Part shown: positions 1-62,835 of the stretch, in pieces
Layout: each line of letters opens with the position of its first letter
How positions within the stretch are numbered: position 1 is the stretch's first letter
Assembly: GCA_965178125.1 (NCBI GenBank)
Contig: OZ237749.1
Span: forward strand, 248,001-312,000
Reading direction: 5' to 3'
DNA from: Bilabrum cf. latius
Taxonomy: Eukaryota
Length of the DNA: 64,000 bases
Notes under the pieces: model-generated
Seen by the model: only the letters and a program-made list of their open reading frames with translations
Database searches by the model: none
What the model was told of the DNA's origin: nothing
Translations under genes and position numbers: made by a program

Positions 1-1
1 A

Positions 2-946
2 GCGAATGGGGGTGCTGGCCCGGGATACTGGTGGTCCCAAACGATGGAAGACGTTACTTTGAACGTGCCAGTTCCCGAAGGAACGCGAAAAAAGGATGTT
101 TCTGTACAGCTTACATCAAATCGAGTTCTTGTCGCTCTAGAGCATGACAGTGGCAGCCTGAGTGCCAGTGGCGGGGCAGGCGGTAGCGAGGTTGCGCAAG
201 AGCCGCTCATCTTGCTGGAGGGCGACCTCGGGGGGAACGCTGCCGGCGAGGACGGTGATGAAATGCTTTGGGTCCTGGATACCAAAGCTGAAAGCGTGTC
301 TACCGTTGAGATTGGCGGAAGCCAGGTTGCTTTCGAGGCGCTGGCCAAGGAGGCACTGCTGAGAGCGTAGGCTGCGTCTGGTGCTGGCGTCGAAGGGGGC
401 AGCGGAAATGCAAACACCGCTCAGTCGGCAAAGGAAGCTTCAGCAGACGCCCCAATGTAGCTGGCGTCCAGCACATCCATGAGCAAGGTGCTGCAAGTGA
501 CCATCAGCAAGTCAGAGGAGACATGGTGGAATTCCGCCGTTCGGGGTCACCCCGAAATCGATGCGACGCGCGTAGACTCCAGCAAGCACGTATCTGAGTA
601 CGACATTGGGACATAGAGCACCATACGCAGGCTAATGGAGGACTAGGCGCGGAAAGCGAAGGGGCTGCCATCGGTGGAAGAGGAGCAGGCACAACGCGCG
701 CTTCAGAGGGCCATGGAGCTGCCCGGCGGCTCTCCATTCGCTGGCACTGCAAGCAACGCGGCTCGGGAATAGGGTGGAAGTGACAGTGCAGCAGAGCAAG
801 ATGATGAATCTGCGCCGGTACCCTGCTATGGGACTGGGGGCACCGTGTCTGACCCTTTGCCTGCAGGGGATGGGGGCTCCAGATCGGGTGGTGGCCGTGA
901 TGGTGGAGCAGAGGGTGGCGATGCATTGCAAGGGGGTTCATTGTGA
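2..946 (+). CDS. NudC-family (CS/p23 domain + NudC C-terminal) co-chaperone, 5'-truncated by window edge
   Basis: One frame open from 2 to TGA 944-946 if TAGs at 368, 458, 614, 644 and 770 are sense. NGGAGPGYWWSQTMEDV matches the NudC CS-domain start; WWNSAVRGHPEID...YDIGT*STIRRLMED*ARKAKGLPS...GSPF matches the NudC/NudCD3 C-terminus with *=Q (cf. MMYDQRQK). Confidence 0.88.
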
Positions 947-1444
947 GCAAGTTCTTGGGATTGCCGATGATTGGTGCTACTAGAATCCGATATGATTGGG
1001 TCAGTTCGTGTACGTGGGTCCGCCTATTCAAGCCAAGCTGCTTGGTGGCACCCAGGCACATGACAAGGGGCATGCAGATGGCTGTAATGGCACCTGGGCG
1101 TACCCATGGCTCGCACGAGCAGATAAGGATGTGTCTCGGGCGGTCCGATGGCGATGACGTGCAGGTCTGAACCACCTCGATCACCCTTCACACCGCATGT
1201 CGCCCGCGCGTGCGTGGTGGAAACGCAGTGCAGTCTGTGCATGCGGTCTGAGGTCTGGTTGGTCTGCTAGGGATGTGGGTCCCACTCGTGGGTGTGCACC
1301 ATACGTATCCCGTGTGCACCATACGTATCCCGTGTGCACCATACGGCGATTTTATCTGATTTGTTAAAGTTCCGTGCAATTTGGACACTGCGGAACTTCC
1401 AGTTCAGCCCGAAGTCGGCTGTGCATCAAATCCACTAGCTGCGA

Positions 1445-4400
1445 ATGAAAGGCGAATTTGCGCTTCATGCGGCTCTTATTGCTTCATTTGCAATTTTGAT
1501 TGTTGATGGTAGCTTGGTATTTCGTACCTCTCTACGGATCGGGCCTGGGCTTATCTATAGCGACATGAACAGTCGCAGGCCCGGAATCCTCTCTGTAGCA
1601 ATAAGAAACGGCACCTGGGGCCCAAACCTGCCGATATGTGGCGACGGATTTACAGAAGCTGATGCTCGGGAGTACTGCGTCGGAGAAGATAACGCCGGCC
1701 TTGCGAGGTTCAAGCTGGTTCCCTCGGTTAATGCTTCACTCAGCCAGACGACCATGTCCTGCGAATCAGGATCCTGCACGAATACCCTGCTGACACAGGG
1801 CTGTACATCTGGTACGATAATTGGGCTGGAATGCACCTAGGTGGATCTCGGAATTCTGAAAGAATCAAACTCGAGCGTGCCACCCCTTGATCGCGCCACG
1901 CCAGCGCGGGAGCAGCCAGCGCGAGCTCGAGGGGTCGCAGCCGTGTACTCTCTCAACAGAAACTCTTGGCGATACCTTTCAGAAGGCACATTACCGAGCG
2001 AAGGCGGCAACCGGACGGCAGACAACATCTGCAGGCTTTTGGGATTTCCAGCTGGCGCCGCGACACACGGCGAGGCGACCGCGACCACGAGCGCCATCGC
2101 GCACAAGGACTACCGGCCATCTGGGTCTGTGACGATCACTGTGACGGAGTACGGCTCCCTTCTAGACTGTGATGACGAATTAAACAGCCTGAACGGGTGC
2201 AAGACCATCCGGGACACCTACATCGCGGACGTCGACCAGGGCGTGAGGATCGAGTGCTCCAGGGTTCGGTTCCGCTTGCTCGGTCCAGAGGGCACGGCGG
2301 CTGAAGGCAGTGCCCTGTCCCACCCGCTAGCCGCGGTAGCGACAGGAGCGTTGCACGCTGATCGGTTCTTGGAGCCGCTGCCGGAGGGCTGCGCAGACGT
2401 CAGCGGTGAGTCTGCTGGCTGGGGCGGCACGAGCGCCACGTCTGGTCCAGTGTGCGACCAGCGCATGGACTAGGTCACGGCTGACCGGATCTGCCGGTGG
2501 ATGAACTTTGACGGAGCTTCTAGCGTAACCACTGGCGTTGATGTGAGTCAGCATGGTGGGGGATCAAGTTTTCCGGTGGGCGCTCCAGCGTGTCCAGCAT
2601 CAGCTGACACCCCAGAAGACTGCGGCATTCAGACGATGAGTGGCACTACAGGAGCAAGCAGGTCTAGCAACTCCACTGGGGCATGCAGCCTGCCTGACGA
2701 TGCAATGGAGGGCGCAGATCTCCCTTCGGGATGCGACAGCACGAGCGGCGTGAACCTGACATGCACGAGGTCGCTTGAAGTCAGGCTGATGCCAGAGGAG
2801 AGCGGCGGGTAGCCGCAGGAGCAGTACTCCAGCTACTATCGCCGGGCGCATTTCGACGGGGTTGCGATGGTTCGCGTCCGCGGTTAGATGCAACACAGGG
2901 TGTGTGCCGCAGCAGTGGATTTGAACGGAGATGACGGCCAGTTGATCGGTGACGCAATCTGTAGGTCCGCCGGATTCTCGCACGGTGCTTGGGCGGGCTC
3001 TGTGCGAGTCAGCCACGGGCCTGCCGTTTACTCTAACGCGGTCCCCTCTGGCATCCGGGTGCGATCATGCGCCAAGAATGCTTCAAGTATGGAGGAGTGC
3101 GACTACAGCCTGCTGCAGCCGTCGACGTCCTGGTGGGAAACGGACGACTCGTGCAGCCGCCGGGGCCTCGTCGCAGTCAGGGTGAGCTGCCAGGATAGGA
3201 GCTTTGCTTTGATGCGGTATCACAAGCAAGCAGCTGGAGAGAGTAAGGTGCTATCACCGCAGGCTGCCAGCAACGGGACTGGCATGGTACTTCCTTACTA
3301 GGGTCTGCTTGCCTGGTCCACCGGCATGGATGATGGGGAAGACAACCCGCTGGTGTGCGAGTCGTACCTTCCCAATGACGACGAGATACGCCTTGCTTGC
3401 CAAGAGCTCGGGTTCTCGGGTGCTCAAGGTACCTTTCAGGTTCGAGACGTGGCAGATTTCAGCTACTAGTATTCCTGGCGAGATTCCGCGGGGATGGGCC
3501 GCCCAGAGAAGCCTCTGTCTTGCCCCACCGACTCCAATGTCAGCAGTCTTGGGGACTGCCTTGATTCTGAGAGCTGTTCCACTGGTGACGCTGTTGCATT
3601 GCAGTGCGCAACTCCTGCGGTAGAGCTGATGGTTGGAAACGAAAGTGTGCTGCAGGCAAGACTGGCAATTGCAGCGGGAGATGCCGGTGGTGGTCACACA
3701 ATCCGTGGGGCCTGGGGTCCAGTCTGCTTTGCCCTTGGATCTGCGCTGGATCAATCGTAGGCAGATGGAATATGCGAAGCGATGGGGCTTTCGAGTCCCG
3801 CTGTGGCTTTTGACAACCCGCAGCAGCTGGATATGGTCCCAACGACGGTGCGCAACTTCACTGCAAAGGCACTGCGCTGCTCGAATGGCACCTGCAGCGC
3901 AGATGGGTACTTCGAGAGTGGGTGGGAGCGAGATCCTGTTGTGGGCTGCTCAGTCGTGCAGATTCAGTGCCAGGAGGGACTCGGAGCGTTCGTGCCCTTT
4001 TCTGGTCCTCCAATAGACGATGATGACGATGATGGGAGCAGCTCTGGCGGTGGCAGCTCTGGCGGTGGCAGCTCTGGCGGTGGCAGCTCTGGCGGTGGCA
4101 GCTCTGGCGGTGGCAGCTCTGGCGGTGGCAGCTCTGGCGGTGGCAGCTCTGGCGGTGGCAGCTCTGGCGGTGGCAGCTCTGGCGGTGGCACTGGCGACGA
4201 TGATGATGGTGGGAGCAGCTCTGGCGGTGGCAGCACTGGCGGTGGCAGCTCTGGCGGTAGCAGCTCTGGCGGTAGCACTGGCGACGATGATGATGGGAGC
4301 AGCTCTGGCGGTGGCAGCTCTGGCGGTAGCAGCTCTGGCGGTAGCACTGGCGACGATGATGATGGGAGCAGCTCTGGCGGTGGCAGCTCTGGCGGTGGCA

Positions 4401-4948
4401 GCTCTGGCGGTAGCAGCTCTGGCGGTAGCACTGGCGACGATGATGATGGGAGCAGCTCTGGCGGTGGCAGTGGTGACGTCAACGACCGTAACACAGCTGA
4501 CGACAACGACAATCCGCAGGATTCAATCGGAGATGATGATCAGGGTGACGATAGTGGTGTTAGTCATGACGACAAGACACCTGGCACTGGAGATGGGAGC
4601 GGCGATGGAATTCAGCCACCAGGGCAGGTCCCAGGGTCTGGTGAGGACGGCGACGATGGTCTCAGTGCAGGTGCTATCGCTGGCATCGCAGTTGGTGCCA
4701 TTGCTGTGGTGGCAATTGTTGGCGGGGCCACTGTGTTCTTCTTGGCAGGCGGTTCGCTTATGCTCTCCGGTGCAGCACCGGCTACAAGCATGGCTCCTAT
4801 GGTTGCGAGCCAAGGCGCTGCGTCGACCTCCAAGCCGACTCTGCTCAATGCGTAGTCAGCTGACGGACAGTTCAAGAGCATCAATCCATTGAAGAGCGCT
4901 GCGCCAGATGCCTCCAGTGCGGAGCACGGAGCTGCCGGGTTCGTGTGA
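1445..4948 (+). CDS. Type I membrane protein with several SRCR-like cysteine-rich domains and a Gly/Ser/Asp-rich stalk (~1167 aa)
   Basis: Six track ORFs (1445, 1841, 2501, 2888, 3494, 3782) share one frame joined by 8 TAGs and end at TGA 4946-4948. Hydrophobic N-terminus; repeated SRCR-like motifs (WGPVC, ADNICRLLGF, ADRICRWMNF, GDAICRSAGF, ACQELGF); TM helix LSAGAIAGIAVGAIAVVAIVGGATVFFL. Confidence 0.82.
4036..4470 (+). repeat. Coding 15-bp tandem repeat (GGCAGCTCTGGCGGT, GSSGG) interspersed with TGDDDDG units
   Basis: Directly visible; encodes the stalk of the SRCR-like protein. Confidence 0.95.
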
Positions 4949-6542: not shown

Positions 6543-6806
6543 ACCCTCTATCTATGATATATGCCTGCAGTTAATACCTTCTTAGTACTATTACAGGCAA
6601 CAGTACAAGCTATCTGTTGCAGTTGACGCAGTTGCAGTTCGTACGGCGCCGCGGATTTCCCCGTCGTTGGTTCCGCACGTGTGCGCCCAAAGAGTACTCC
6701 CATTGTTTTGCCGAACGGAAGGTCTGGAAACAATAATTAAAGCTGGTCGATGTTGCGAAACTTTGCTTAACTCTCGGATTATTCTACCAAGAGGTCTTGG
6801 CATTCC

Positions 6807-9800
6807 ATGCTAGCTTTTTACATGCTGCTTTCAGGGCTTGGGCTTGCCGCGAGTAGCACAGGACAACACCCTCGGACTCAAATATTTTCAAACCCTGAAG
6901 AATCTGAGTTCTTTTAGAATTCAATTCGACTCGAGACGAGGCAGCGGGCGCTGAAATGGGCTGGGAGGCAGACGCCACAAGCAAGAGCCAGCTAGGACGA
7001 ACCGCAAGTCGAAGATAGTAGCAATATTATCCTCAATTCGAGGTCTTAGCTTCTTCAAATAATGTCAAATCGTCATCACGCAACTGTAGCTGCAGCTGCA
7101 GAGACGGGCGAATCAGCAGCTGAGCTATAGACTTCCCACCACTTGCATTCGTTCATGCACGATCACGACCACGCCTTGGTTTCGATGCTGCAAGTATCAT
7201 CCGGGATCCAAGATATGGGCAAAGCAAGCGAAGCTGCTGGGGGCACGTCTGAGTTGCGTGCAAGCCAGTATTTCGAGCTTATCGAGGATCCTCTGTTGAA
7301 CCTGCTTGTCCCGATCATTATCAAGATCATCATCTCGCTAGCTAAGCAGCCGATCATGCTGGTCCTATGCCAGCTGCTCAGTATTTTGCTCGCAAACTTG
7401 CTGGCAACGCCCATGGCCGAGGCTATTTTCCCGGGACTGGGCCTGCAGATGCCTGGTGCGGGTGCATCAGCAGAGCTGCAGTCTTCGTTGTCCCCATTAG
7501 CGCGCAACGCCATGGCGGCATTCAGTGCTATGATGACAACGACCACCACCACAACCACCTCGTCTACCACGAAGTCTGTGCCTGCGATGTTGCTTCAGGA
7601 AGACGTGGAAGAGGCTGACAGCAGTGCATGGAACAGGACGGCGTGGAGCTTGTCCGATCACGCCGGCGGTCAACAAGACGAGTACCTGAATGGGCTACAG
7701 TTGGATGCTGCCAGGGTGTGGCAGATGAACCCTGACAAAGGCATCCGTTCCAGCTCGGACTCAGTCGACGTAGAGAAGCAGGGCTCCAAGCCGTTGGATC
7801 GCGTGTCGATCAGGGCGGCCTTCATCCAGGAGGCCGCCGACGTGGTGCGGAAGCAGCGCGACAACCTCAGCGCCAAGCGTGACGCAGCTCGGCAAGCCCG
7901 TCGCTGGACCAACAAGCCTCCGCATCACCGCCGTGTGAGCACCTAGTCGGCACTGCAGGCAGAGGTACAAGCTAGCGGCTCTGTATCAATGGTGGACTCA
8001 CCCGACGGTGCTAGCTCAAGTCGTCTGGCTGGAACTAGCGCAGCCAAGCCGAGCATGGCGCCATCGCTGATGCAGACAGGCAGCCGCGCTAAGCTTGGAG
8101 CTGCTACTGCGATGGAAAGCGCTTATGGCGCGTGTGGGGCGAGGAAGAGTCGGTCTGCTTGCGTGGAGCAGCCCCTGCCCGACGGCTCCATCTGTTCGTG
8201 GTGCGAGGCCGATGTGATCGTCGAGGCCGGGGGCGGCGAAGCTGAGGGCAGCAAAGACCAAGGCAGCAAGGACAAAAATGGGCCGAATCCTGCCGGCAGG
8301 CGTTCGCGTGTGGGACGGTGCGTCATGTGCAGAGGTGCCTGGGGCTCGACGGACTACGATCCCGGGTGGCGACACGCCAAGTGGGCCGGAGCAGTGGCCA
8401 ACAATGAGGCAGTGCCTGCACCTGCACCGTCCCTATTGGAGGTAGGTGCAGATGCGGCTGGTGGGCAGGGGTACTTGAATGAGCAACGGCTTGAAGACTC
8501 GCACGCTGAGCGCGTGTGGCTGCAGGAGCTTCGGCAGTGGGGAGGAGCCAGCACGCAAGCTATGAGCAATGGAAGCGAGACTGATGCAGGCTCTCTGATG
8601 CATGTCACGGCCTACACGCAGATGTCTTCATCAGGGCAAGGGCCCGCAATCCCCGCCGAGCATGCAGCGCTCGCAACCGCCAAGGGTCTCGAGGCTCTGA
8701 AGGCCCCGGACGGCTCAGACAGGCAGCTGTGGCACTGCAGTCCCAGGCCAGTCGGCGATGACGCCTGCATAGTCGGACAGAGGCCACCCCCGCCAGATCC
8801 TCGCCCGGCCCTGGATAAAGCGGCCACGGAGGCTTCGAAAGAATTGGGCAGCACGGACGATCCGGGCCAGAAGGTGCCCCCAGGCTTCATCAGGTCTAAC
8901 GAGTGGGGGCCCATCGACCCCGACCCGCCCTCGGAGCCGTTCATGGCTGAGCCCATCGTGGCGACAAACAGCATATCGCAGCGGGTCTCTGCTGCTGCGA
9001 TCGAGGCAGGTGGGGATCAGATCGTGGGGGCCGTGCTGCAGGCGTCCGCGGCTCGATTTGGGAGGGCACTACGCTCGAGGCTGTCGCGCCGCCTGCTCGA
9101 GTCGGTCACCCCTACGCTGGTGAGCAGCGTGCTGCAGCGAGCCATGCCCTCAATCACGAAGGACGTGCGCGCGCTGTACGCCAAGCAGGCGGCAGCTCGA
9201 CTCACGCGCACCGCCATGGTGGCTGCATCGCCAGCCATTGCTGCAGCGCTCACGAGCTCCCTGGGTCGCTCCCCCGCCCAGGACTACTTTTGTGCGCTGT
9301 GCCAGGAGCATGGGGTGAGGGTGGCAGAGTTTGCAACTGGGTCCCATGGGCACGACAGTGCAACTGGGTCAAAGGACGCAAATGGTGGCGAGAAAGGAGC
9401 AAACAAAGGCGACGAGAAGGGCGACAAACCCTCGAACCAGTTGGGCGCCAGCTTGCCGGGCGTGTTCGTGGATCCAGGCGAGCTGGAAGGCCCTTACTGT
9501 GAAATGTGCTAGCACGCACAGCGGGTGTCTGCCAAGGCAGCCAGGAGGGCCTGGGATGTGGCCTATTCATCTGCAACTGAGCTAGCGAGACAAGCCACCT
9601 ATGGCGGGTCTGGTGGGCAAGGAACTGCGCGCGGTGCTTCGATGGCTGCGGCCTCGAGCAGCTTTGGAGGCCCTTCGGGTCCTTTGAGGCACCCCGATAG
9701 GGCAGGCAGCGATTCGCTAGACGACCTAGAAGGCTCTGCTGCGCAAAGCACGCCTGAAAGTGACGCGCTGTCGTCCTCGTTGGGCGCCTTCATGCACGAG

Positions 9801-10064
9801 CCGCGCGCCACTGGACTCAGCCCCGCTGCTGCCGCGCGCGATGCAGCCAGGGCGGCCGTGCTGTCGATGGCACGGGATCGCGGTGTTGCTGCCCTGGCCA
9901 AAGCTGGCGTAGGTGACGGCAAGTCACCTTCGGTGCAGGGGGCGGCTGATGGCGGTGTGTCTACACAGGCAGCACGCGAGGAGCAGCTGGGGTCTCTGGT
10001 GGATAGCGCGGCCGCTGCCAGCCAAGAAGCTTCGGCTGCCCGGCTCAAATCTAAGGACTAGTGA
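6807..10064 (+). CDS. Large secreted/membrane hypothetical protein (~1085 aa) with Cys motifs
   Basis: ATG 6807 starts a signal-peptide-like MLAFYMLLSGLGLAASS. Track ORFs 7143, 7989 and 9525 are in frame via TAGs; ends TAG-TGA at 10059-10064. Motifs CSWC, DYFCALC, PYCEMC. Confidence 0.7.
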
Positions 10065-11234: not shown

Positions 11235-14200
11235 TCAATCTCCTCCCGATGCCGCTGCATCCTCCAAAATCGACACGCACACTTCATGCCCACCGGCCCT
11301 CGCCGCCTCGATAGGGGACAACCGCCTGCCATTTGCCACAGCAACACGCTGAGACATGGCCCCAGCCAGCTTGCCCAGCCGCAGTCTCCTGGCCAACTCC
11401 ATGGGCCTGCCCTCGCTCGCTGCCTGGAACACCAGCGGCACGTCATGATGTGCTCGAACCGCTCTGCGGTAACCCAACAGTACGCCGATCCTTCGCTGTC
11501 CACGCACCAGCTCGCGCACAGCTGGCGCCTTGCAGGTTCTCACGACAGCATCCGGAACGAGCCTAAGCATTGCTCTCGACGGCTCCCTCTCCATGGCCTC
11601 GTGCACCGGCTTTGCCCAGTATATATCGGGGACCATTCGCTGGTTCAGCCCTCCAGTGACGGACAAGTATCCACCCGGCAATCGTGAAAGTGCTGCCAGA
11701 GCATTGGGAAGACCTTTCAGGTACTCCCATCCGGGGTACCCCACTTCGATACGAATAGGTAGCCGCCTCCCTCGCCCCCTCTGCAGCCAGTGAGCCACAG
11801 ACTCTTCGTCGTCGGGTACTGCATCCTCTGCTGTGGGTCGTTCATACGGCGCTAGCACGCCAGGAGCCTTGCGAACCTTCGGCCCGTCTTGGATACCGAA
11901 CCAGTCCAAGAACGTCTTTGGCCTGCCAGGATCATCAGCCGGCGCTGGTTTCCTGTCGGATGAGCCCATCGCGATGTACGCAGAGAACCAGTCTTTATAG
12001 GCCCCCGGCCCGTCAGGTTCAGACGCCAAGTGCTCGACCGGCATTCCAAGCGCACCTGCTACGATTTCACACGACTGGGCACCCCCCACACCACCAGACG
12101 CCAGGTGAACTCTCTCCAATACAGGCGCGACTCGCAATAGACGCGCGAGTCCCCTGTGCATCTCAAGCTGGACGGATGGACGCAGCTTGGGTGCATCCCT
12201 CGTGCTCACGTGGATTCCTTGCGAGCCCCCCAGCACCAGCTTGAAGGACCGAAGCTGCGGCCACTCTCTCTCGCAGATGCACTCGAACAGCGCCTTGGCG
12301 TTTGTGTTGCTCCAGTCACCCCAGTTGCCTGCGTACGTGAACAGCGTCAGTTCCTTGACTTTTGACGCGTCCAGGGCAGCGATCGTCGCACAGTGCGAGA
12401 TGCATGGAAGATCCCTCGGCATCTGCCTGAGATGCAGCAGGACTTTCTCGCACTGGAGGGGCCTGATGCCCGCGCCGTCGACTGCCTCAGCGTGTTCATC
12501 CAAGCCACCCTTGATCGTTCCACTCGCCAGTGCAGCATTGATGGCCAGTGCGGCATTCAGCGCGTCTCCGATCGCGCGAAGGCTTCTTTCATCCGGAACG
12601 TCACCGCGCATGTGCACGAAGCACGAGTGCTGCCGGATCAGCCATTCGGCCACCTGTTCTCTCGAATACCCCGCGATCCCCCGAAGCAATGCGATCGGCA
12701 GCTGCGGTATGCTGTGCCCAATGGTCAGCTCCAGATCGTTCAGGTTGCGGTTGCTGAGGAACCGCAGAGCACGGACCATCGAAAGGGAAGCAGCTGCCTT
12801 CTGCTCGGGCGTATCGTCGCTGTGCCGAATCATTGGCTGGAAAGCCAGTCTCCTAAGATTCGGGTGGTGCTTGCGGATGTCGTCCATGGTCTTCTGCAAA
12901 TCAGTGGCGCTGAATGAAGAAAGTCCGGTGTCGCAGGGGATTTCAAGGCATCTGAGCTTCGATACGGCTGCGCCGTCTCCGCCTCCACTGCCAGCCGCAT
13001 GAGCTGGAGCTGGCTGTCCGTGGACCGAGTGACCGGCAGCATTACCCTTGCTGCTTCCTTTGGTAGCGTGGCGAGGTGGCGCTGGGTGCAGACACGGCAG
13101 CCCAGAGTAGCCTGCGTACTTGTTCGGAACCACCTGCAGCCATACCAGCGTGTCCTGTCTCGGCAACAAGTCCGCCTTCGGCCCCTTGGACCCTGTCAGA
13201 CGCGACTTAAAGGAAGCCGGCGCTGGCAGGGACCCAATCTTGCCGAATAGGGCTTTCCTGATGCCGGTTATGATGTTTCGCTGGTGCTCCTTGGTCTCCG
13301 CGGATGCATTGCACTGCATTGCGACCAGCCGCGGGAATAGCTCGACGGACGAGACGAGCACCTCCGTTCCACCATGGGAGCCAGGCACGTCTAGCCTCCT
13401 CACCGAGCTGAAGAGGGGTTGCACTGCCGACTGCTTGGACTTAGGTGAAGACTAGCCAGAATGTGTAGTACCCTTGGGTGGCTTGTGGGATCGAGCACGA
13501 GCACCGTGTGGCTTGCTTGGTGCTGCTCGGCCTACAGCGTCCTGGTGACGGCCGTGGGCAGTAGAGGCACCGTGAAGGTGCGGATCGGCCGCCGCTCCTT
13601 TCGCGGGCTTCTTCTTATTGGTCTCTGCAGCCACGTGGATGGCAGCCTTCATCCACTGCTCGAAATGCGTGCTGGTGATGCTCATCCTGTACTGGCAGGG
13701 GAATGATAGCCTCTCCAGACTGCCAGACCTTGCCATCGCTCCAAGAGCTGCAGCGGGCAAGGACACTGAGCCTGGCCCCAGTTTTGCGGATATTTTTTCA
13801 GAGGAGAGCAGGTGCGGATCGATGCTCAAGTGCTGAATCCTTGACGAGACTCTGGGTCCAATGGATTCGAGAACGCGACCAAAGACAGAGAAGCCCGACA
13901 CAGACAGGCGCTTCAAGTGCCGCAAATGACCAGCATGGGCCGCCCATTGCAACGATGCAATGATGCCATCCAGCTCTTGGGAGATGCTGTGTGCCTCCGG
14001 GGTGTTGGATCTCGAGTAATAGAGTCTGCTCGACTGTATGTCAATGCCGTGCGGTTGATGGCTGAGTGCCTCATGGAGCTTGCTCTTGTGTCCTTTCTTA
14101 GTTTTCAAAGCAGCCGGGAGCGGCAACTCTAGCACCAAGTTGTCCATATCAGCTGCGATGCCATAAATGAGACCAACTTGAACAAATGATAGATCGACTG

Positions 14201-14249
14201 TCGCAGGCGAACGCGTTTGGAGCATGCCACCCAGAGTGCACAAGCTCAA
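11235..14249 (-). CDS. Hypothetical ~1000-aa protein, LRR/RNI-like central region, ankyrin-like C-terminus; start uncertain
   Basis: ORFs 13452-14249 and 11235-13424 are in frame through TAG 13452; ends TGA. LxxLxL patterns (HLKRLSVSG, SLERLSFP, NLRRLAFQ, QLRSFKLV, VLERVHLA). Confidence 0.68.
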
Positions 14250-14557
14250 ACACTAAATACTATATTGCAAGATCGCATCAATTCTAACCTGCAAGTTTCT
14301 TTGCGCAGACGGAAGATCGCGCGGCATCGATACCGGAACCATCTTGAAGCAAGGCCGGCGGGTACAGTTGCCAGTGGTGAGGCCAGCAAGGTCTCTGCAA
14401 TTGAGGTCGCGCGGTCACGGTGGACGCAGGACCCGCTCTAGGCGCAGGCTCAGATACGACGTAGCGACGCGGAGCAGAGAGAGAGCGCGGTAAATGAAGC
14501 CAGGTTAGTCGGAGCCACTATAAACACAATACACAGCAACACGGTGGCAACGCAAGC

Positions 14558-17512: not shown

Positions 17513-17798
17513 AGCAGGGAAAAACAATGGCTCAATCTCGCAGTTTCACTTGAGCAATCATCACAGCTTGTTGCTCGCTGCAAAGATGCCGTCATAGTGC
17601 ACATATGAACACATCAGCGGCTTTGGCTTCGCTAAGGCTATTCATTTCTAAAGGAATTGACCCAAGAGGCGTAAGAGCACTGGAAATTCGTGCCAGGCTT
17701 ATTTATATTTCGAACCAGTAGATTGCCGCTGTGAAAAATGATGCATGCACCACGTACCGCAGACGGAAATCTGGAAAACTCTTGACTCTAAGTAGAAG

Positions 17799-19076: not shown

Positions 19077-19138
<62 letters not shown>

Positions 19139-27344: not shown

Positions 27345-27400
27345 GTATTTGTGGTAGGCCGAGGCCTATTCGAAGCCTTGTGGGGGGGGCTTTATGGAGT

Positions 27401-32259: not shown

Positions 32260-32317
32260 TTCGCCGAGTTTTGCCGAACCAGGGAAGTTCGACAACTGCA
32301 ACAACTTTGATTTTGTG

Positions 32318-37500: not shown

Positions 37501-40500
37501 CCGACCCGAGCTCATTAAGCAGAACGGAATCAGAACAGGACGCGCGAGAGATTTCGCGACTGATTCTCTGCAGATTGGCAGCAGTTGAAGCCAGCACAAA
37601 GTCATCTATATGCCTGCCAGCACGGCCACCTGACAGGAGTGCTATACCATCCTCCCTCTCTACCTCGCTCGCAACACCGCCAAGCCCGCCTGACACGGCG
37701 AAATGCTTCAGCCTCGAATGGACAGCTCCACCCAAAATTGCAGCAGTATCGGCATCGATAATCTTCAAGTCCTCATCCTAGGTAATTTCCGAGTACAGCA
37801 CGTGCTCGATGGCACTGGTCTGCCGAGAAGCTTTTGAGCTGCTAGCAGCGGCGTTGCTAGCCTTGGCGTCGGTGCTACAGGGCCCCGCCACCTGCGCCAC
37901 TGGTGGTATTTGTTCATCAGTAGTGTGGCTTTCTTGTTGCTTTGGTGCAGGTTCATGGCAATCATCCTCACCAGTCGTGGCAATTTCTACCGACAGCTGA
38001 GGCTTGGCTGTCAGACTACGCGCCATACATCCACTGTGACACCGTGCCCACACGTGCAAGACTGCGTCCAAAGACGCTGCCGGAAGCCCTGGACCAAAAT
38101 GGAGCTAACTTGGTTCCCAAAATTCGATGCCTGTGCGCGAATCGGAGTCGCATTTCCTAAATCCTAGCATTGACGGGTTGACTGCCGAGATCTTTGCGCT
38201 GGAGGCTCGCAGGGTCAGCACGGCCTGAAGCACTGCTGGACATGCTGCGTGAGACGATGACGAGGATTTGCATGTGGCACACACAGCGCTCACAGCGGCA
38301 TTGAGTTCTTCTGCGGCGATCGATCCGGGACTGGGGAGGCATGACACAGCGTACACGAAGCCGTGGTGCGCTGGCAATTCGGTACCACTCGCTGCACTCG
38401 CAGCAGCGTACAGCTTCGCGGCAATGGTCGCATGCCTTAAGCCGAGCCCGTGCCTATGCAGCACTTCCTTGGTCGATCTCCTGATCTCGGCAATCGATGA
38501 CCAGCTAGTCTGCATTTCTGGGCTCCCAGAGTCTTCCTTATGGAGCACGTACGCGATGCCGGCCCTGTCAAAGGGGCTGCTTATCAGCGATGACGGGAGG
38601 AACTGCTTAGAGCTTTGCACACCAGCCACACGAGCGCCATCAGCTCTGCCAGACAGTGTAAAGCGCTCTCTGTCCTCAGCAAGCATGTCCGTCAAGACCT
38701 CCTTTAGGGTGCCACCTGCCGATGCACGTCCCGTACGACGTGCGCGGGAAGAACTACTTGCAGGATCAGTGGCTTGCATGACATCGTGCCACGCTTTGAC
38801 AAGTGCCTTCTTGCCTGTGATCCCTTTCACTGTCTTGAGTAGGATATCGCGGTGCGCAATGCGGGTCTCTTTGGCTCTCTGGTTGCCCTTTTCCGATCCC
38901 ATCATGCAGTCTGGAGACACTGCCGGCAACCCTTTCTCCTTTGCCACTGTAGCGGCTGCTGGAGGAAGCATGCAGGACAAAGGCACCACTTTTCCGTGGT
39001 ACAGCTTTGCAGAGCTTACCACGGCGCACACGAGCTCGCGTTCCACGCCGCCTAGGTGCACAAGCGCGTGCGCGGTCGGCTTCATGATGACAACGCCTGC
39101 TCCGGGCACAACCTGCGATACGCTCAGCTGAGGCTGTGGCGTGGCGCACCCCGCAGGACACATGTGGGCGACTACCTGCTAGGTACGCTCCAGTAGCGGG
39201 CGAACGATTGCATCCATCCACCGCAAAGCCGATCGTATCCTGGGATTGTATGCGTCAACACTAGCTGCTATGCCAGGTGGTAAGGGCTGTGAGAAGCATG
39301 CAGGAAGGCTCGTAGTGGCGTCTTCGAATGGCACCTCAATTATTGAGGCCGTCAATGCCGTGCGATCTGATGCACTGTCCTCGCAACTTGCTTGATCAGA
39401 GCCAGATTCTTCTCTCCTACAATCACCTCGGTGAAACAGGGCCATCTAGATTGATTTAAGAGGCTTTGTGAGGTGCTGCGCTGCGACCGCATCTGGCATG
39501 AGCAACCTGTGCGAGTCCAGCAGGAAGGCCTCACCATGCTAGGACACGTGCAGCTCTACGTCGAACGGCAAGCGAAACGAATGCTTTAGCATCTCACAGC
39601 CGTCCACGGCCTGCACAGTCTGTGCATGCGCCCGCAGCGCGCGATCGATTGAGATCGCTTGAAAGAGTTTTCCAGTACATTCGATCACTTTTCTCTGCAT
39701 TGGGTCATCACTGGTCTCCAGACCCTCAAGCACGTCATCTACAGATCTACTGAAGGGGGCTGGATCACGGCTGTCGCTTGCTGTGCCGCTACCACTTTCA
39801 ATGAAAGGCATGTCTGATGTGATGGGTTCGTTTCCACCCTTGGCAGCAGTCGCTGCTCGTGGCCTGGTTGCCATGTCAACCACAATGTCGTCATACGCGC
39901 TCGCTGGAGCCAGCGCAGTTGAAACTTGCACTGGTCCACAGCGTCCATCCGAAGTGCTCTACTGTTGAGCAAGCGGGTCCGATGGTACCGCCTACGTCAC
40001 TGAGCTGCTTGCCAGGTTCGTCCAATCTTCAATCGCTTCGTCGTAGCCGGTTGCTGCCGCCGTTGCAGGACCGCTACCAGCACCAGCACCAGCACCAGGA
40101 CCAGCACCAGGACCAGGACCAGCACCAGCACCAGCACCAGCACCAGCACCAGCACCAGCACCAGCACCAGCACCGGATCCGGAAGAATCTCCCAAGGCGA
40201 GTGCTGATTGCAAAGTTGGCTCCGCACCCTAGTATTGATCGATGCCTGAGACTGACGCTAGCCTACTAGGTGCCAGTGTATCAAATACAGGAGCAGTCCC
40301 AGTGCCCATGGCACCCGATTTGGGCCCTGCGGTATCAGTGCTACTGCCTTGCGATGAGCCTGAAGACCTTGGCGCGGGGTGGTGCACGTCACCGCCGTCA
40401 CGTTCCACCGTTCTCCCTTCGGGCGCTGAAGGCCACAAATTCCGGATCATCTCAGCATCCACGGGGAGCTCTCGAATCGGCTTGAAACCATGGGCCACGA

Positions 40501-41560
40501 TTCTGCACGGCTTTGTGGGAGGAAAGGGAGCCAAGTGAAACCTATCGGCAAGGGCAGCTTCAGCAGCTTCCAACGTTGGGTCAACATTTCGAGTGATGCC
40601 ACCGTCTGACGACCCGGACCTGAGCGTGCCTCCACCAACAGGAACTGCAGTTGTGGCCGACATTCGCACCACCCTTGCCACCCGTTGAGCTTTGCATCCT
40701 CCTGACTCTATTCTTTCGGCTCCGTCAACAATGCTTACCCCTTCAAGAAGCTCACTTGCCACTGCCAGTGGGCCCGCACCAGCGAGCGGCCTCGTCCACG
40801 CCAGCGGCGGCCCAACCGCGCCAGAGGAGGTCTTTGCGGCCTCGTCGGCATGAAAGTACCCACCCATTATGCAAAGAACTGCAGCGTTGCTCGCAATATG
40901 CTGCGCGTTCGCACGAATGGGGTAGCCAGCGGGCGAAAACACGCACATGTCAGACCAAGAAGAAGCTGACAGGGTGCTCGAACTCCGCCGCCCGATTTCT
41001 GGAGAGGCGTGCTCTGACCCACTCCGAACCCAATACGCACAGTCGACAGTTGTACCTAAGGGGGCATTCAACACATCGAGCAGTTTCTGGCCAGGATGCG
41101 AATTTGAAGCCTGTCCCGCCTGCCCAGCCTGGTGGACGAATCGAATGGCGTTCGCTTCGTGCTTAGCTACCTTCCCTGCCATAACATCGTTGCCGTACAA
41201 GTGCTTGTCGTCAAAGGCAACTTTGAAAAATACTCCGAACTTTGTGTCGATCGCCTTCGCTCCTCCAGCAAAACCACCATGGACTCTCTATAGCCGACAG
41301 CGCAAGCTTTCATGCAACAATGTCGGCAAGGGTGGTTCCAGGAACCTAGGTACGGGTAATTGTGACCCCAGACTATCGTCAATTATCACTTTCGATAGCC
41401 TTGCGCTGCGTCCAGCAAAATGAGCTTCGAATCCAGCGCCTCTGAGCAATGCTGACTTGTCCGCCTTCTACCCTAGTCTGGCTGCCAGATATTTCTTGGA
41501 AGCAGTGAATCCATCATGCAAATACGGGTCAATATCATGAATACGAAATCCAGAAAACAT
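34502..41560 (-). CDS. Giant Clu-domain + TPR-repeat + C-terminal UBA protein (~2350 aa); start approximate
   Basis: Twelve track ORFs (34694 to 41468) lie in one frame; the junctions checked are TAG and the gene ends at TGA 34502. GGFAGGAK...[24 protein letters not shown] and [11 protein letters not shown] are Clu-like; kinesin-light-chain-type TPRs ([16 protein letters not shown]); [36 protein letters not shown]. Confidence 0.8.
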
Positions 41561-41666
41561 GCAAGCAAGTGAATAATACCACGGATGGACTTGGTACCGT
41601 GCGGTTTGCATATATATCGGATACAGTAGACTAGCACAGAAACAGCATCTAGTAAGACAAGTAAGC

Positions 41667-42795
41667 ATGATTCGGGAACTTGTTGCAGTCAGCATCGGTT
41701 ATGCTACATTGGGAGCAGCGACAATGGGTGTAGACGTATCACAAGCGACTTTGGTCGATGCATGGAAGTGTTTGAACGGGCAAGGTTATACTTTTGGCAT
41801 CATCCGCTGCTTTGAATCGACTGGGCGCCCTGATAACAATTGCGTGAGTACAAGTTGCTGTGGTTCATTCATGAAATGCTGCGGCGATTCATGCGACCGT
41901 GCCCGGATCCTTCTGTTGCCTTTGCACCGCAGCCTCATACGATCTATAACGCGCACGACGGCGGGCTGCAACATGTCGATGTGTACTTTTTCCCGTGCCC
42001 AAAGTGTTCTGAAAGTGCGACCGACCAGGTCAGTGCCATGCTCTCCAATTTGGCTTCGTTCAACATCCACCATTCGGATGCGGGCGGCCAGGGCACGTTC
42101 GGCACGGTGTGGCTCGACATTGAGGGTGAGAGGTTCGTCTGACACGCCGGCATACTATGATGATTTCGGTTATTGCATTAGAAGTGCCTATGACATGTCA
42201 ACACGACGCCCGGACCTTTCTCTGTGATGACCGCTGACCGGCCCGAACCCTAGATCGATCTCATTTCATTCCGCAGGACCCCAGTACTGGCACTCGTCCC
42301 AGAGCGAGAACTCCGCATACATCCAGGAGGCCATCCAGGCGCTCAAGGCCAAGGGTGTGCCCGTGGCCATCTACACCTCCGAGTCCCAGTGGAGCCCCAT
42401 TACCGGCGGGGCGACGTTTGCAAGCGACCTGCCTCTATGGGTGAGAGGGGGGCGCGGCTTGCCGTTATATTAAGCCTCAATTTGTGCTAGATCTAGTCTC
42501 GACTTTCGAATTGAATCCAAGTCTGGGCTCATAGAGTCCAGCGCACTAGCTGAAACGCCTGGCTCCCCTCTGGACGTATTGGCAGCTGCAGCGCGCAGAT
42601 CCGATCCTCTCAGCTCTTGTCTCCTCCATCTTTTCTGTTTCTCCCCTGTGACGCGCGCAGTACGCTCACTACGACGAGTCGCGTTCTTTCAGCGATTTCC
42701 GCCCCTTCGGCGGGTGGTCGAGCCCTGCCATGAAGCAGTACGGAGGGGACGCGACCGTCTGCGGTGCTGGCGTGGACCTGAACTGGTACCCCTGA
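41667..42795 (+). CDS. Secreted GH25-like (protist-type) lysozyme, 4 exons
   Basis: Introns 41844-41932, 42126-42276 and 42441-42660 (GTGAG...CAG). Spliced motifs [59 protein letters not shown]. Confidence 0.92.
42474..42596. repeat. ~125-bp dispersed repeat in lysozyme intron 3; second copy at 52767-52890
   Basis: GCCTCAATTTGTGCTAGATCTAGTCTCGAC...GGCAGCTG(C/T)AGCGCGC present at both loci with few mismatches. Confidence 0.9.
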
Positions 42796-48169: not shown

Positions 48170-51106
48170 TTAGCGGCCAGCCCCACTACTTGCTGCAGCA
48201 GGCATCTATCCTTTTTCTGCCATGCCATCTTCTTTCTCTCCCTCAATCGATGGATCTTCGCCGCGTGAAGACTGGGGTCCAGGCAATGCATCACCCATGG
48301 CGATCCTTGCGCGAACCTCCTCCAGATTGCGCACAGCCTGGAAAGTTGCCTTCTCAACGTACCGGCCCATGAACTGACAGACTGCACTGTGGACGAAAGT
48401 GTGAGCACACGACGCCCAGCGTTCTTTCTGCCTGGCGCGCTTGCTGCAGTAGGAGAAGAATCGTTCAGTCGAAGCCTGAGACATCGCCATGGCCTTCAGG
48501 TAAGAAGCCAACTTTGACAGTAATGGGCAATGCCGGATCACAGATGCATCTGATGTCCAAAACTTCATGGAGCTCCAGTTCTTCTTCATGGTGGCGGTCT
48601 CCAACTGAACAAGTTGCGAGTCCGTCTACCTGCAGAATGCTGCCCACTCATTGTCCAAATCCCCACGCTAGAAGAGGTCACTCAAGTCTCGCCCAACTGC
48701 TTCTTTTGCAGCATTAAAGATGCTACTCGTATCACGCAGCTTTTGCAGCCTTAGCTCTTTGCTCGCATTGATGTCAAGCAGCAGGATGACCTTGGCAACG
48801 CGCAGCATACCTTCGAGATGCTCGTCCATCTTCTTCCCTGCAGCCTTCGCTGGCCCCACATAAGACTTGATGAGAAGCTACTCTAGCTCATCCTCCGTGT
48901 AGTTGCACCTGAACCACCAATGATCAGGATCGTGGCATGCCTTAATGGCCCTGACAGCGGCCTTGGCATCGTCCACGAGGCGTGGCGGAGCAGATGCTTC
49001 AGCACCTCCAGCGGCAGCGCCAGCAGCGGCCTACTGCGCACCCACCCCTTCAGCAGCTGCGCGTGCAGCAGCTGCAGCCAGGCGTTGTTGGTGTGAAGGT
49101 CCCGGCCCCGTTGCCTGAACTGCAGCGGCACCCACACCTGCACCAGCAGCTTTTGCATCACCATCACCTGGACCCTCTGGGTACCTGAACCGAGCAGTCT
49201 CAACCAACTAAACAAAGTCGCGAAGCGTGTCCATGCTCTGAACGCCATCCTTCTACATCTTTACGATCATGTCCGAGAGCTTGCTCAGCACGTCCGAGAC
49301 TAGCGCTGTTCGGGCAGCAACCTAGACGACATCCAATACGTCCCCCACCGTGTACTCAGTAAGAGTCGTCCCACGGATAACTCTTCCCTTTCGGCGAGGG
49401 ACACAAGATATGACTTTCTTGGCACAATTGATGAATGTACACTTCTTGTTTTTGCTGAAAGCCTCGAATTGCGTCAGGAGCGATCCCGTGAATCCCAAGC
49501 TAGCGAGTGGTTTCGCTGCATCCGCTTTGCTGCACCACCTCGTCTCAACCGCTTTCGTAACCGCCATACCATCCTTTTTAGGCATGCCTGCTAGTTCAGC
49601 AGCTCTGGACACTGCAGTCTCGATAATCGCACGACTGCCAAAGGCTCGCGACCATGCAGTGCTGAAAGCGCTGACCAGGCCGGCCAACGATGACTTGGGG
49701 CCCGTCCGAGTGGAAGTGAATTCCACGTCCAGGTACACACCTTCAACCAAATTCAAACTATGGGGTATACAGTGCCCAACAAAAGGTGCAGGAAGGCTTT
49801 TGCCGGCTGCCTTCTGTTCGATAAGGAGGTTGCTGCAGAAGGTCCGGTTCGCCAGCTGAGCATACGCTGCGTTGTCAGACGTGACGCAAGCAACATACTT
49901 CTTATCAATACCGGTCACCTTGCAAAAGTGGTCCAAGACTTGCCCAAGTTGCTCGGCAAGAGACTCTCCAGAGTGTGAATCGCTGCTGCAATCGACACCA
50001 ATCACTAGTACCCCTTTCGGCGACAGGCGAAGATCGGCGAACTTGGCCACAAACACCGTGATCTTGCCCACATAATACTGGGACTCATCATGCATGATGG
50101 AGACAAATGGATGCAGGGTGACGTCATGACCCTTCAGCTCGATGCATGTCTGCTTGACACCGCGAAGCACTTCGTCGATCAGGTCGTTGGTACTTTGCTT
50201 GGACCTGCTCACCTGGCTTTGGGCAATCGGATTCGGGGCCAAGACCTACAATGCGTCACGGTGCACATGCGAAGTTACAAAGCTTATCTAACTCTACGAG
50301 AAACCTTGAGACATCATCAACGAAATGTAGTGGGCGCGACCCTGCACGCTCAGCTGCCGCGCTCTCTCTTCGACGGGAATGGCGTCTGGGCTAAGACCAC
50401 CCTCCAGCATCTGTCGCGTGCGCATGGCTGCTTTCTACTCTACATGATGGGATGACAATTGTCTCGCGAAGGCATGCCTGGATGCTTCTTTTGCAATAGC
50501 ATCACTTTTGCGACGAGTCAGGGTGCGCGGGATGTTGTCGGCAAAGTGCTTGCCAGCAGCGTCGTCGTCCCGTTGACCTTGTGCCTCGTCAACTTCGAGC
50601 TTCGGGTTCTTCTTCTTGAGTTTAGCCCATTTCCGCCTTCTTTTCATGGCATTTAGTCGAGCACCGTATGCGTGCCGTAGTGAAAACAAGCGTGCCTCAT
50701 ACGTTGATCCACTTGCAGCAATCCCTGAGTAGGGGTGGAGCTTCATGTGAGAGCGCACCGCGGCTGCATCGCGGACTGAGACGTCTTTCGCGCAGATCTA
50801 GCACGTCATTTCGCCGGTGGCCTTGAAACTATCCAGTGTAGTCTTGCCGAACGCCATCTCGATGACTGGATTCTCTTTCATCAGCTTTTGAAAGGCACCA
50901 CCGAAAAAAGATTCTCGCTAGGTAAGAGGGTTACGTTGGCGTGCAGGCTTCTTCGGTTTTTGTACTTTGGCAGCCTTGAAGGGACGAGGTGGTGAAGATG
51001 CACCGCCTTTCTGTACCACTGCTTGCTGTTCTCCCTCTCTCGGCCGCTTATCGCCCAACTGCTTAACGAAAGTGCATACAATCGATGGCTCTTTCATCTT
51101 GGACAT
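48170..51106 (-). CDS. hAT transposase (~978 aa), apparently intact
   Basis: Five track ORFs in one frame with only TAG interruptions; ends TAA 48170. Zn finger C*IC...H...H, SIMHDES, VTSDNAAY, CIPHSLNL, ETRWCS, and dimerisation domain PLLSKLASYL...SQASTERFFS. Confidence 0.9.
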
Positions 51107-51649
51107 ACGCTTTTTCTAGTAGGGCTATACTTTGGGCATTTGATACAGTTATGTGGCACCTCGAGGATCAAGTTTTAAAGTACACATTATGTATAAATAA
51201 CCCATATTTAATACAGATGTATTTGTAACGTACAGATATCCAGCTGTCCCCAAAAGCTTATTTGGGGATTATTTGGGGACGGTCCCCAAATTGCATAGGC
51301 CTGCCCAGCCCATTTGCCTGGAGCTTCAGGTGCTAGAACGCATCTGGGCGAAGGGAACGGCAAGGCTAGCACGCTCCCGGATCTGGAGCAGGCAACAAGT
51401 CCTAGAGGCGGACTATGTGGCGGTCTGGTGGCGAGAGGCTGAACGCCTCACGCCTCGCCAGGCCTTCCTTGCGCATGCTCCCTCACTGCGGACGTTCGAC
51501 TGGGTCTGACTCCCAGGAGATCTCAACGCGATGCGCTTAGGACACGGGTCCTAGGCATGTATCGGTCTTAACCAGACCAACTATTTCTTTAGAGGCCTTT
51601 TCAGGTCCTGACTGGCTCCGCCAACGCGGGTACAGCTGGGTCCCTTGTA

Positions 51650-52760
51650 TAGGTGCGCGTTACTTTGGTGGCAGTCCTCGGATTGTCTCTGGTATTGAAT
51701 TGCGTGCGAAAACTCTATTTCCTCTCTCTCTCTCGATCCTTTTTTTTGCGGAGCCCATGGCGTGAGCTTGCTGATCCGTTCGACCTGCCCAGTGCGATTG
51801 CCTCTTGGGGTGGTCGTTGTAGTTGGGTAGTGTGTGCTTTGACTCAGACATATTATATTCTCTCTCGATCCCGGCAGGAGCACAACCAGGTGGTGGATCT
51901 GGGAGTGCTTGGGAAGAGGCAGGCGGCCTTGACCCTGACCATGCTGGTCTCTTACATCCCCTAGCACTCGCAGTGGGAGCTCCAGATGTGCAGAACCTCC
52001 AAGGAGGAGCGGCACAGCTGACAGCTGCTGCAGCTTGAGCTGGTCAGTGAGATGTTTCCTCCCGGTCGAAGTAGCCTTCGGGTGACTTCTTAGCCTGGGT
52101 AGCGTGTAGTTTGAATCACATAAATTTATTCTCTCTCTCTCTTGCGATTATATTCTCTCTTGCGATTGCCTCTTGGGGTGGTCGTTGTAGTTGGGTAGTG
52201 TGTGCTTTGACTCAGACATATTATATTCTCTTGCCTCAGACATATTATATTCTCTCTTGCCTGCCCTAGATCTATGGGTAGATGGGGTGCTGAACGTGTC
52301 AGCGAGGCTGGTAAGTGCCAAGACGTGGGGGACCACTGGGAGTGTACCGCATGAGGCAGATACCGAAAAGGGTCTGGAAGCTCGGAGGCCGTCGGGACGA
52401 CACAGGCAGGCAGGGCCAGCCAAGTGTCGAGTGGCAGCAATGCGTGTTGCCCCCGCCATAGTCCGAGTGGAAGGGCGCCTGTAAGGTCTGTCCTTTCAAC
52501 ATGCATAATCGTGATAGCGTGCGCCTTTGAGTTCAAGTTGAATCACAAACTATTAGACCCCCCCCCCCCTCCCCCCCCCCCCCGCCTAGCCTAGATTACT
52601 ATGAGGGCTGGAGGGCTGCAGCGAAGACCAAACGGGCGCTCGTCAGCGCGGTCAGGGAGGGTTTTGCCAGCCTGGCTGTGGGGGCAGCCGAAAACAACAA
52701 CCTCGCCATGGCGGTCGCCATCGCCAAGGCAGGGTTGGACCAGAACGGGGCTTGTCGTTG
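51650..52760 (+). mobile_element. Cluster of head-to-tail retroelement 3'-end fragments
   Basis: A ~70-bp block is duplicated at 51793 and 52161. A 3' UTR homologous to the poly(C) element lies at 52511-52557, followed by a long C-run (52558-52583). An ORF-end fragment of the same family lies at ~52603-52750. Confidence 0.6.
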
Positions 52761-53596
52761 TACAAGGCCTCAATTTGTGCTAGATCTAGTCTCGACTTTC
52801 GAATTGAATCCAAGTCTTGCGCACATAGAGTCCAGCGCACTAGCTGGAGCGCCTGGCTCCCCTCTGGACGTATTGGCAGCTGTAGCGCGCCCCCCCCGCT
52901 ACGGTAATAAATAAATTTATTCCCTTCGGTTAAGGATGATTAACATCATCAATAGTTCCAGTCCATCAGAGCTAAAGCTCTTCAGTCCGTTCCACTCCTT
53001 TTGGAGCTAGTCGCTCCAAAAGTCAAGGTGAGCCTCTTCATACTGCTACTTCATATAACTGCTTTATCCTTCTAATTATATAAAATCAATTATATATAAA
53101 ACTCTATACGATGACCATATCCATAAATTGCGTATTAGTATATGTAAGTTCTAATCAAAACGTGGATGTAGCCCTCTTGTGAAGGTGTTATGGGACTCTA
53201 GCCATTTTCTAGCCAAAAGTTCCATCACTTTATGGGACTCCATTATTCAACCTTCTAAACTACCTTCATTATACCCCCTTATCCTCGCTTATACCTTCAC
53301 AAATGGAACAAACGCGCTACAGCAACTCGCTACACTCGTCATCGTCAAAATGAACCTGAACCTGAATATTGGAGTTCAGCATTTCTTAGGAAATATGAGG
53401 GTCTAACCAACAGGATTTAATATTAAATTGTAAGCCTTTATAAAGGGTGTATATGTTTTTAAGTATTAATCTATGCCTATACATCACATAACCCCCTTCA
53501 TAACCCTAGCCTATAGGCTAGGGATAACCCCCACATAACCCCCCCACCTCTAAGCGTTTTTTTAAAACTCAAAAATTATAACCTAGTATTATAGAT

Positions 53597-57508: not shown

Positions 57509-57566
57509 TACCTTTTTTATGTGTTTAAAATAACTTAAACATTATATATTTATATAATATATAGTG

Positions 57567-62823: not shown

Positions 62824-62835
62824 TCTCTATATAAT

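Follow-up and report, generated by a model that had tools for sequence, protein, structure and literature searches.

Probable reading of UAG as glutamine in a GC-rich eukaryotic sequence and in an adjoining virus-like element

Reassignment of UAG with UAA kept as a stop codon was long considered blocked, and to our knowledge such an uncoupled change has been documented in a handful of lineages, nearly all of them AT-leaning and UAA-terminating. Here we analyse a 64,000-nucleotide stretch of genomic DNA (hereafter the window; positions 248,001 to 312,000 of contig OZ237749.1, assembly GCA_965178125.1, deposited as Bilabrum cf. latius), which falls into a GC-rich part with host genes (1-52890, 54-62% GC, about 57%) and an AT-rich part with a virus-like element (52891-64000, about 29% GC). 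Judging from open frames and protein alignments, we consider it very probable that UAG specifies glutamine in the host while UAA and UGA remain stops, and the element appears to be written in the same code. The closest described systems are Iotanema spirale of the Fornicata, with UAG as glutamine and UAA and UGA as stops (PMC5304391), and the ciliates Hartmannula sinica, Trochilia petrani and Protocruzia tuzeti (PMC11687900); elsewhere UAG stands for leucine in a rhizarian and some TARA ciliates, and for serine in Scotinosphaera (PMC11687900). In Iotanema UAG is not seen as an evident terminator, and the mechanism proposed is a tRNA-Gln with anticodon CUA together with a change in eRF1, T32G, at the position that faces the third stop base (PMC5304391).

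The window resembles Iotanema in that UAG alone reads as glutamine, and in that glutamine occupies UAG columns about as often as it occupies the columns of canonical glutamine codons (PMC5304391). It differs in its stops, which are UAA in 104 of 119 Iotanema genes and UGA in 15 (PMC5304391), as against TGA in 8 and TAA in 3 of the 11 host open reading frames (ORFs) analysed here, and in its nature, for Iotanema is documented from a transcriptome only (PMC5304391), whereas here the evidence is genomic DNA of 57% GC, next to which lies a recoded virus-like element. With Hartmannula, Trochilia and Protocruzia tuzeti it shares the change of UAG alone to glutamine and the spread of UAG throughout the interior of genes (PMC11687900). 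In phyllopharyngean ciliates, however, UAA ends 86.9-98.3% of genes and UGA 1.7-13.1% (PMC11687900), unlike the TGA-rich ends of the window, small as that sample is; the window is, besides, a multi-gene stretch of 64 kb that contains transposon-like repeats and whose GC-rich introns measure 89-220 nt. P. adherens favours CAA over CAG (PMC10942620), whereas the host ORFs contain 247 CAG and 130 CAA. All the glutamine cases for which stop figures were available, namely Iotanema and the phyllopharyngeans, thus end mainly in UAA, and the window ends mainly in TGA. The GC content, the dominance of TGA among the stops and the GT..AG introns of 89-220 nt are indirect signs that the host differs from the described UAG=Gln lineages; the code is of a known kind, and the lineage appears to be new.

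The element invites comparison with three groups of mobile genomes. Like certain giant-virus metagenome-assembled genomes, it has genes that are open only under stop reassignment, a property that has been taken to hint at a variant code in the host; according to a 2026 catalogue, every giant-virus isolate derives from a host with the standard code, and for some of the assembled genomes an alternative code is a prediction (PMC13524828). Those genomes are free-standing, with no host attached (PMC13524828), whereas here the element shares a contig with host genes of the same code, and unlike giant viruses it belongs to a group of small viral contigs of 17-28 kb. This range lies inside the 14-40 kb given for polinton-like and virophage-type viruses, which the element also resembles in being small and AT-rich and in carrying a primase-helicase beside host genes (PMC12220804, PMC10120064). 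Its left 11.1 kb, which is what the window contains, has 10 ORFs among which no capsid, packaging ATPase or integrase was recognised, and we regard it as a candidate member. Finally, TAG has been converted to glutamine in the 'code 15' bacteriophages; these differ in code from their standard-code hosts, with recoding acting as a switch (PMC9523058), whereas element and host agree here. The papers searched included neither a GC-rich non-ciliate with UAG as glutamine nor a recoded polinton-like virus. The recoded virus-like element joined to its host is the most original part of the result.

The meaning of UAG in the GC-rich part

The longest stop-to-stop frames of the GC-rich part measure 738, 523 and 521 codons under the standard code, and 2398, 1273, 1097, 1059, 995 and 992 codons once TAG is treated as sense (Table 1). 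Treating TAA as sense brings no gain (738, 549 and 521 codons, the longest host frame staying at 738), and a sense role for UAA, as in the code in which both UAA and UAG are glutamine (NCBI table 6), is not supported. With TGA as sense many short frames merge, the longest reaching 847, 845 and 806 codons and none exceeding 847. The 11 host ORFs, totalling 10,377 codons (mean 943), contain 82 in-frame TAG triplets, hardly any long gene being without one; as these ORFs are delimited by TAA and TGA, their lack of in-frame TAA and TGA holds by construction, and the weight of the argument lies in their length. Read in the remaining two frames, this DNA has TAG 80 and 100 times, TAA 39 and 55 times and TGA 168 and 293 times. 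Random decay would therefore make TAG about 0.245 of all breaks (180 of 735 off-frame stop triplets), whereas 82 of 82 are observed, with a chance of about 1e-50. TAA serves as terminator in three host ORFs and seven element ORFs; the Arf-like ORF ends in TAA at the usual C-terminus of its family, and the TGA of the DnaJ-domain ORF comes just past the J domain.

The identity of the residue can be approached through a second organism. A word-based search with the NudC-like ORF gave one weak match, P0121, for which the protein atlas returned NudC clusters of a generic kind (plants, arthropods and diatoms) that give no clue to the lineage; the ORF aligned with this single hit was the query for a scan of metagenome contigs. 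The locus L081, 5.5 kb of a 10.9-kb metagenome contig of 56% GC with in-frame TAG, carries at 1111-5529 a full NudC-like gene (Nudc_N and CS domains in Pfam, nine in-frame TAG) followed directly by an orthologue of the window ORF 6771-10064 (14 in-frame TAG). In the window these two genes stand 5.8 kb apart, with the SRCR ORF and an ankyrin-like ORF between them. Because the organism behind L081 also has the UAG reassignment, the change predates its split from the lineage of the window.

The two orthologue pairs align over 294 columns at 49% identity and, for ORF 6771-10064, over 774 columns at 51%. We scored TAG columns by BLOSUM62 sums and took as columns in good context those with at least 7 of 12 flanking identities. 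Six of the 11 such columns place TAG opposite CAG or CAA, the rest facing S, A, E, R and K, and the sums are 33 for Gln, 17 for Glu and 13 for Lys; over all 24 aligned TAG columns Gln scores 29 and Glu 11. As a control, the same comparison decoded correctly 44 of the 44 sense codons that have at least 8 columns each. The partner residue is glutamine in 45% of CAG columns as compared to 55% of TAG columns, and in 0 of the 24 aligned TAG columns do both organisms have TAG.

Individual conserved positions point the same way. Codons TAG205 and TAG215 of the NudC-like gene (the latter at position 644) correspond to glutamine in all six metagenome loci that cover them, five of them distinct sequences, and in the L081 gene the Gln that is invariant in the W-x-Q-T motif is occupied by a TAG. 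NudC is conserved beyond TAG 257, with YGTGGTVSDPLP in the window and YGTGGTISDPIP in L081, and the C-terminus falls at a homologous position in both, where the window uses TGA and L081 uses TAA. The three PDB alignments shown each set the Arf-like TAG158 (22939) against the Gln of Arf1, while TAG82 is opposite His. The hAT-like protein has P0122 as its sole homologue in an exhaustive search, and the alignment puts TAG812 opposite Gln and another TAG opposite Asn; for the 2398-residue TPR/UBA protein the word-based search found no homologue.

An earlier reading of the letters alone (the sequence-only reading) had proposed UAG as glutamine with UAA and UGA as stops, and the ORF statistics, the glutamine at host and primase TAG columns and the Arf and NudC positions all bear this out. 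The nine coordinates on which it leaned carry the codons it named, TAG at 644, 22939 and 23708 and three pairs in which TAG and CAG are exchanged between repeat copies at 23-28 kb. Two of these exchanges, 26892 TAG/27404 CAG and 26916 CAG/27428 TAG, are clean; the third, 27135 CAG/27647 TAG, lies beside a 5-base indel and its alignment is less certain. Its naming of these copies as a retroelement with an 'RLE motif' finds no backing, as no Pfam family was found in 23438-24070 or in the neighbouring ORFs.

Contigs from sequencing runs bear on the message. Those of runs X5 and X7, from two studies, join 41843 to 41933, 42124 to 42276 and 42439 to 42660, all across GT..AG introns, and therefore contain spliced message of the host organism. 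Three X5 contigs covering 34480-38452 (3973 bases), 38467-39861 (1395) and 40187-41538 (1352) match the window with 0 differences and 0 gaps; they span 6.7 kb of the 2398-codon gene and retain its TAGs. There is no joint at a TAG in any of the run contigs. The unchanged TAGs and the lack of joints at them argue against editing or splicing at TAG, either of which would have counted against the sequence-only reading.

The AT-rich element

In the AT-rich part no standard-code frame is longer than 205 codons, whereas frames of 929 and 509 codons appear once TAG counts as sense. The earlier assignment of the code to 1-52890 was sound for that range and too narrow, for UAG=Gln runs beyond it into 52891-64000. 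Table 6 was also considered for the AT-rich part and rejected, because the 1428-codon frame that it yields crosses intergenic sequence between separate genes. The glutamine-type codons of the 10 element ORFs comprise 44 TAG, 52 CAA and 11 CAG.

The primase-helicase has 293 database homologues, of which 120 were aligned, leaving 16 usable TAG columns. Profile scores over these columns are +8.8 for Gln, -4.5 for Lys, -6.2 for Asn and -7.0 for Glu; Gln keeps the top rank whichever of the 16 columns is left out, and the controls, 32 codons of 32, are decoded correctly. At column 577, where the window has TAG, all 120 homologues have Gln. Relatives of the primase numbered 108 in an alignment-based scan of IMG/VR; 80 were retained, and most of these lie on contigs of 17-28 kb, whereas a scan of viral contigs with the single protein gave no match. 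Among 32 loci sampled from the 80 that were fetched, 30 have a standard-code primase frame of at least 867 codons, the other two reaching 643 (a truncated locus) and 661 codons. The relatives being open under the standard code, the element lineage normally uses that code and the copy in the window is recoded.

Besides the primase-helicase and the DUF5872-family protein, the remaining eight element ORFs gave no recognised family in Pfam and PDB scans; a label of family-B polymerase ('PolB-like') for 59389-60918 was dropped for lack of any match in either. A sequence of about 140 bp occurs three times between element genes (53091-53232, 54426-54565 and 62057-62195; 77-83% alike), and one of 80 bp occurs twice (62821-62900 and 63565-63644; 96% alike), just upstream of two leftward ORFs; both may be promoter or regulatory repeats. 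The ORF 57912-58472 has GC fractions of 0.46 and 0.45 at codon positions 1 and 2, as against about 0.3 in its neighbours, and its predicted product is rich in Ser, Gly, Ala and Val and has no family match.

Alternative explanations

The observations that weigh against a uniform reading of UAG as glutamine are gathered here, each beside the explanation it would favour. The first of these holds that UAG has a dual meaning, being sense inside genes and still a terminator in some contexts, as in the context-dependent codes of the Condylostoma type. In 2 of the 11 host ORFs the last sense codon is a TAG with the stop directly after it (10059-10061 before TGA, 34391-34393 before TAA), an enrichment with a permutation P of about 0.004, computed post hoc on a small sample; a third TAG, at 34523-34525 in the TPR/UBA ORF, lies 7 codons ahead of the stop, right behind the C-terminal UBA domain. 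If these were real TAG stops, though, the next TAA or TGA would be expected at a random distance of tens of codons, and not adjacent twice, and the conservation of NudC persists downstream of its last TAG. The test of terminal TAGs was moreover chosen after the data had been seen. We thus think a dual meaning unlikely; the TAG-TGA and TAG-TAA ends fit one-time UAG stops next to which another stop arose after the reassignment.

A second explanation would trace the GC-rich DNA not to a cellular nuclear genome but to a large virus, itself GC-rich and using an altered code, or would make the window an assembly chimera of two unrelated organisms. Many GC-rich ORFs lack any homologue in database searches, and giant-virus assemblies with alternative codes have been predicted (PMC13524828). 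The gene content is nevertheless of eukaryote type (NudC-like, SRCR, amine oxidase, DnaJ, Arf-like GTPase, TPR/UBA and hAT-like transposase, along with a weak Pfam match to ankyrin), and scanning about 30 GC-rich ORFs revealed no virus hallmark gene. Its genes are long and occur about once every 3.8 kb, and the part further contains transposon-like repeats, repeat families, two tandem arrays including a 168-bp satellite, and spliceosomal introns. As for a chimera, the switch from GC to AT lies at the edge of a repeat, a typical place for a misjoin: the 145-bp repeat that abuts the element has its other copy within intron 3 of the spliced gene, and the two copies part company exactly at the start of the AT-rich sequence. 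This looks like an insertion beside a host repeat, yet it is also a typical spot for an assembler misjoin, and it is the assembly alone that shows the junction, the run contigs having been aligned over 28200-45900. The repeat itself could represent a small mobile element or else a site favoured for insertion. What tells against a chance chimera is that the junction repeat is host-specific and that a rare UAG-only reading is common to both halves. Since the two parts share this code, the element is probably a true associate of the host, and we judge a viral or chimeric origin of the window to be improbable.

It is also conceivable that UAG is sense for a residue other than glutamine, Glu and Lys being the next best. 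The nearest primase homologue taken alone (P0001, pairwise) gives Gln 33 and Glu 32, a tie, and several primase TAG columns are mostly Asp, Glu or Lys. Distant NudC structures have Arg (mouse and E. cuniculi) and Thr (E. cuniculi) at the positions of TAG205 and TAG215, and the paralogue pair 24324-25637 and 43235-44560 puts TAG opposite GAG, AAG, TGG and GAG. That pair is uninformative, however, because the ORF changes nearly neutrally and evenly over codon positions (55 codon differences, with 21, 13 and 24 substitutions at the three positions). The fuller comparisons do not align TAG mostly to another residue, contrary to what such an assignment would predict: the primase profile sets Gln at +8.8 against Lys at -4.5 and Glu at -7.0, the host orthologues favour Gln over Glu by 33 to 17, and TAG sits on invariant-Gln columns in the primase (577, 120 of 120), in Arf (158) and in the W-x-Q-T motif of NudC in L081. 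A different residue is therefore very improbable.

With regard to the run contigs, X5 is flagged 'probably DNA' and no run is on record as RNA, the contigs cannot exclude partial editing, and the four runs are near-identical, perhaps of one source, with no between-strain substitutions at TAG. That the TAGs are mere defects (pseudogenes or sequencing errors), or are removed by editing or splicing, has no observation in its favour and is still hardly credible, given that the frames are broken by TAG alone with no TAA or TGA over ORFs averaging 943 codons, that the contigs are identical in four runs, those with spliced transcripts included, and show no joints at TAGs, and that protein conservation continues across the TAGs in NudC and in the orthologue of 6771-10064.

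Other features of the window and implications

Table 1. Features of the window, with coordinates in the whole 64,000-nucleotide stretch
Feature	Position	Strand	Codons	In-frame TAG	Stop	Matches and remarks
NudC-like gene, 5' end cut by window	2..946	+		5	TGA	Pfam CS domain 8.5e-8
SRCR-domain protein ORF	1127..4948	+	1273	10	TGA	Pfam SRCR 2.7e-11
Conserved protein, function not assigned	6771..10064	+	1097	7	TGA	Orthologue at L081 2764-5529
ORF	11235..14414	-	1059	2	TGA	No Pfam family
Flavin amine oxidase-like gene	14558..17545	-	995	3	TGA	Pfam Amino_oxidase 1.2e-25
ORF	17742..20303	+	853	6	TGA	
DnaJ-domain protein ORF	20858..22285	+		4	TGA	Pfam DnaJ 1.4e-10, aa 402-471 of 475
Arf-like small GTPase	22468..23007	+	179	3	TAA	PDB Arf1 1.1e-36
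Repeat family	23328..27706	+				Copies 23480-24160, 26664-27344, 27401-27700; TAG/CAG exchanges between copies
ORF	32168..34396	+	742	5	TAA	
TPR/UBA protein ORF	34502..41698	-	2398	21	TGA	Pfam TPR_12 3.9e-19, UBA 4.7e-8
Spliced gene	41655..42792	+		none	TGA	Introns 41844-41932, 42125-42275, 42440-42659, all GT..AG
hAT-like transposase ORF	48170..51148	-	992	16	TAA	Pfam Dimer_Tnp_hAT 8.2e-4, below cut-off
Host-type 145-bp repeat abutting GC-to-AT switch	52746..52890	.				92% identical to 42453-42596
AT-rich virus-like element, cut by window end	52891..64000	.		44	TAA 7, TGA 3	10 ORFs
Primase-helicase	54719..57508	+	929	21	TAA	Pfam Prim-Pol 6.4e-16, PriCT_2 3.3e-6
DUF5872-family protein	58487..59221	-		3	TAA	Pfam DUF5872 7.3e-23
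ORF	59389..60918	-	509	6	TGA	No Pfam or PDB match

The repeats of the GC-rich part include a composite family at 23328-27706 and 42984-45519, whose copies are 95-97% identical and 19 kb apart, one of them without a 720-bp segment; an ORF of about 440 codons inside this family is open in both copies despite its nearly neutral change. There is an array of eight 58-bp units at 27669-28141, and a tandem array at 46079-47922 repeats a 168-bp unit about 11 times (97% alike), with a length of 178 bp in the final three; a TAG-free open frame of 523 codons spans the latter array. In the Arf-like GTPase the alignment shows DLGGGE where Arf1 has DVGGQD, and the switch-II glutamine, which serves GTP hydrolysis in Arf proteins, is missing. 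The spliced gene at 41655-42792 may encode a GH25-type lysozyme, although Pfam scans of its single exons were empty. No eRF1 gene lies in the window; ARAGORN found 0 tRNAs in it, and tRNA and Rfam RNA-family scans of the window and of L081 were likewise empty.

The source is thus very probably a eukaryote, rich in GC and poor in introns, in which translation in the cytoplasm takes UAG for Gln and terminates at UGA, the commoner stop, and at UAA. A tRNA-Gln with anticodon CUA, one base away from the CUG isoacceptor, would decode UAG and leave UAA alone, and eRF1 would no longer have affinity for UAG, in line with the proposal made for Iotanema spirale (PMC5304391). The element would be translated by the host apparatus and would have drifted to the use of UAG for about 40% of its glutamine codons. 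A more inclusive account can be built on this, namely that an undescribed non-ciliate GC-rich clade of at least two members underwent its own change of UAG to glutamine, uses UGA as its main stop and hosts a DNA-virus-type element recoded to match, the TAG-stop ends of its genes being fossils of the earlier code. We offer this composite tentatively, as an account somewhat short of probable in its entirety.

A GC-rich, TGA-terminating lineage of this kind, if true, would mean that the change can arise independently of low GC or of the dominance of UAA, and a genome, going beyond a transcriptome, would allow a search for the suppressor tRNA and for eRF1. On the practical side, gene callers that apply the standard table will break up every gene of the host and of its mobile elements. 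The pair would also be the first host and virus-like element seen physically joined and sharing a variant nuclear code, and the joined element would tie a recoded genome of eukaryotic virus type directly to its host, which current surveys do not offer. The direction of the change is visible because the element has standard-code relatives. It thereby becomes testable whether a variant code keeps viruses out or whether viruses simply follow it.

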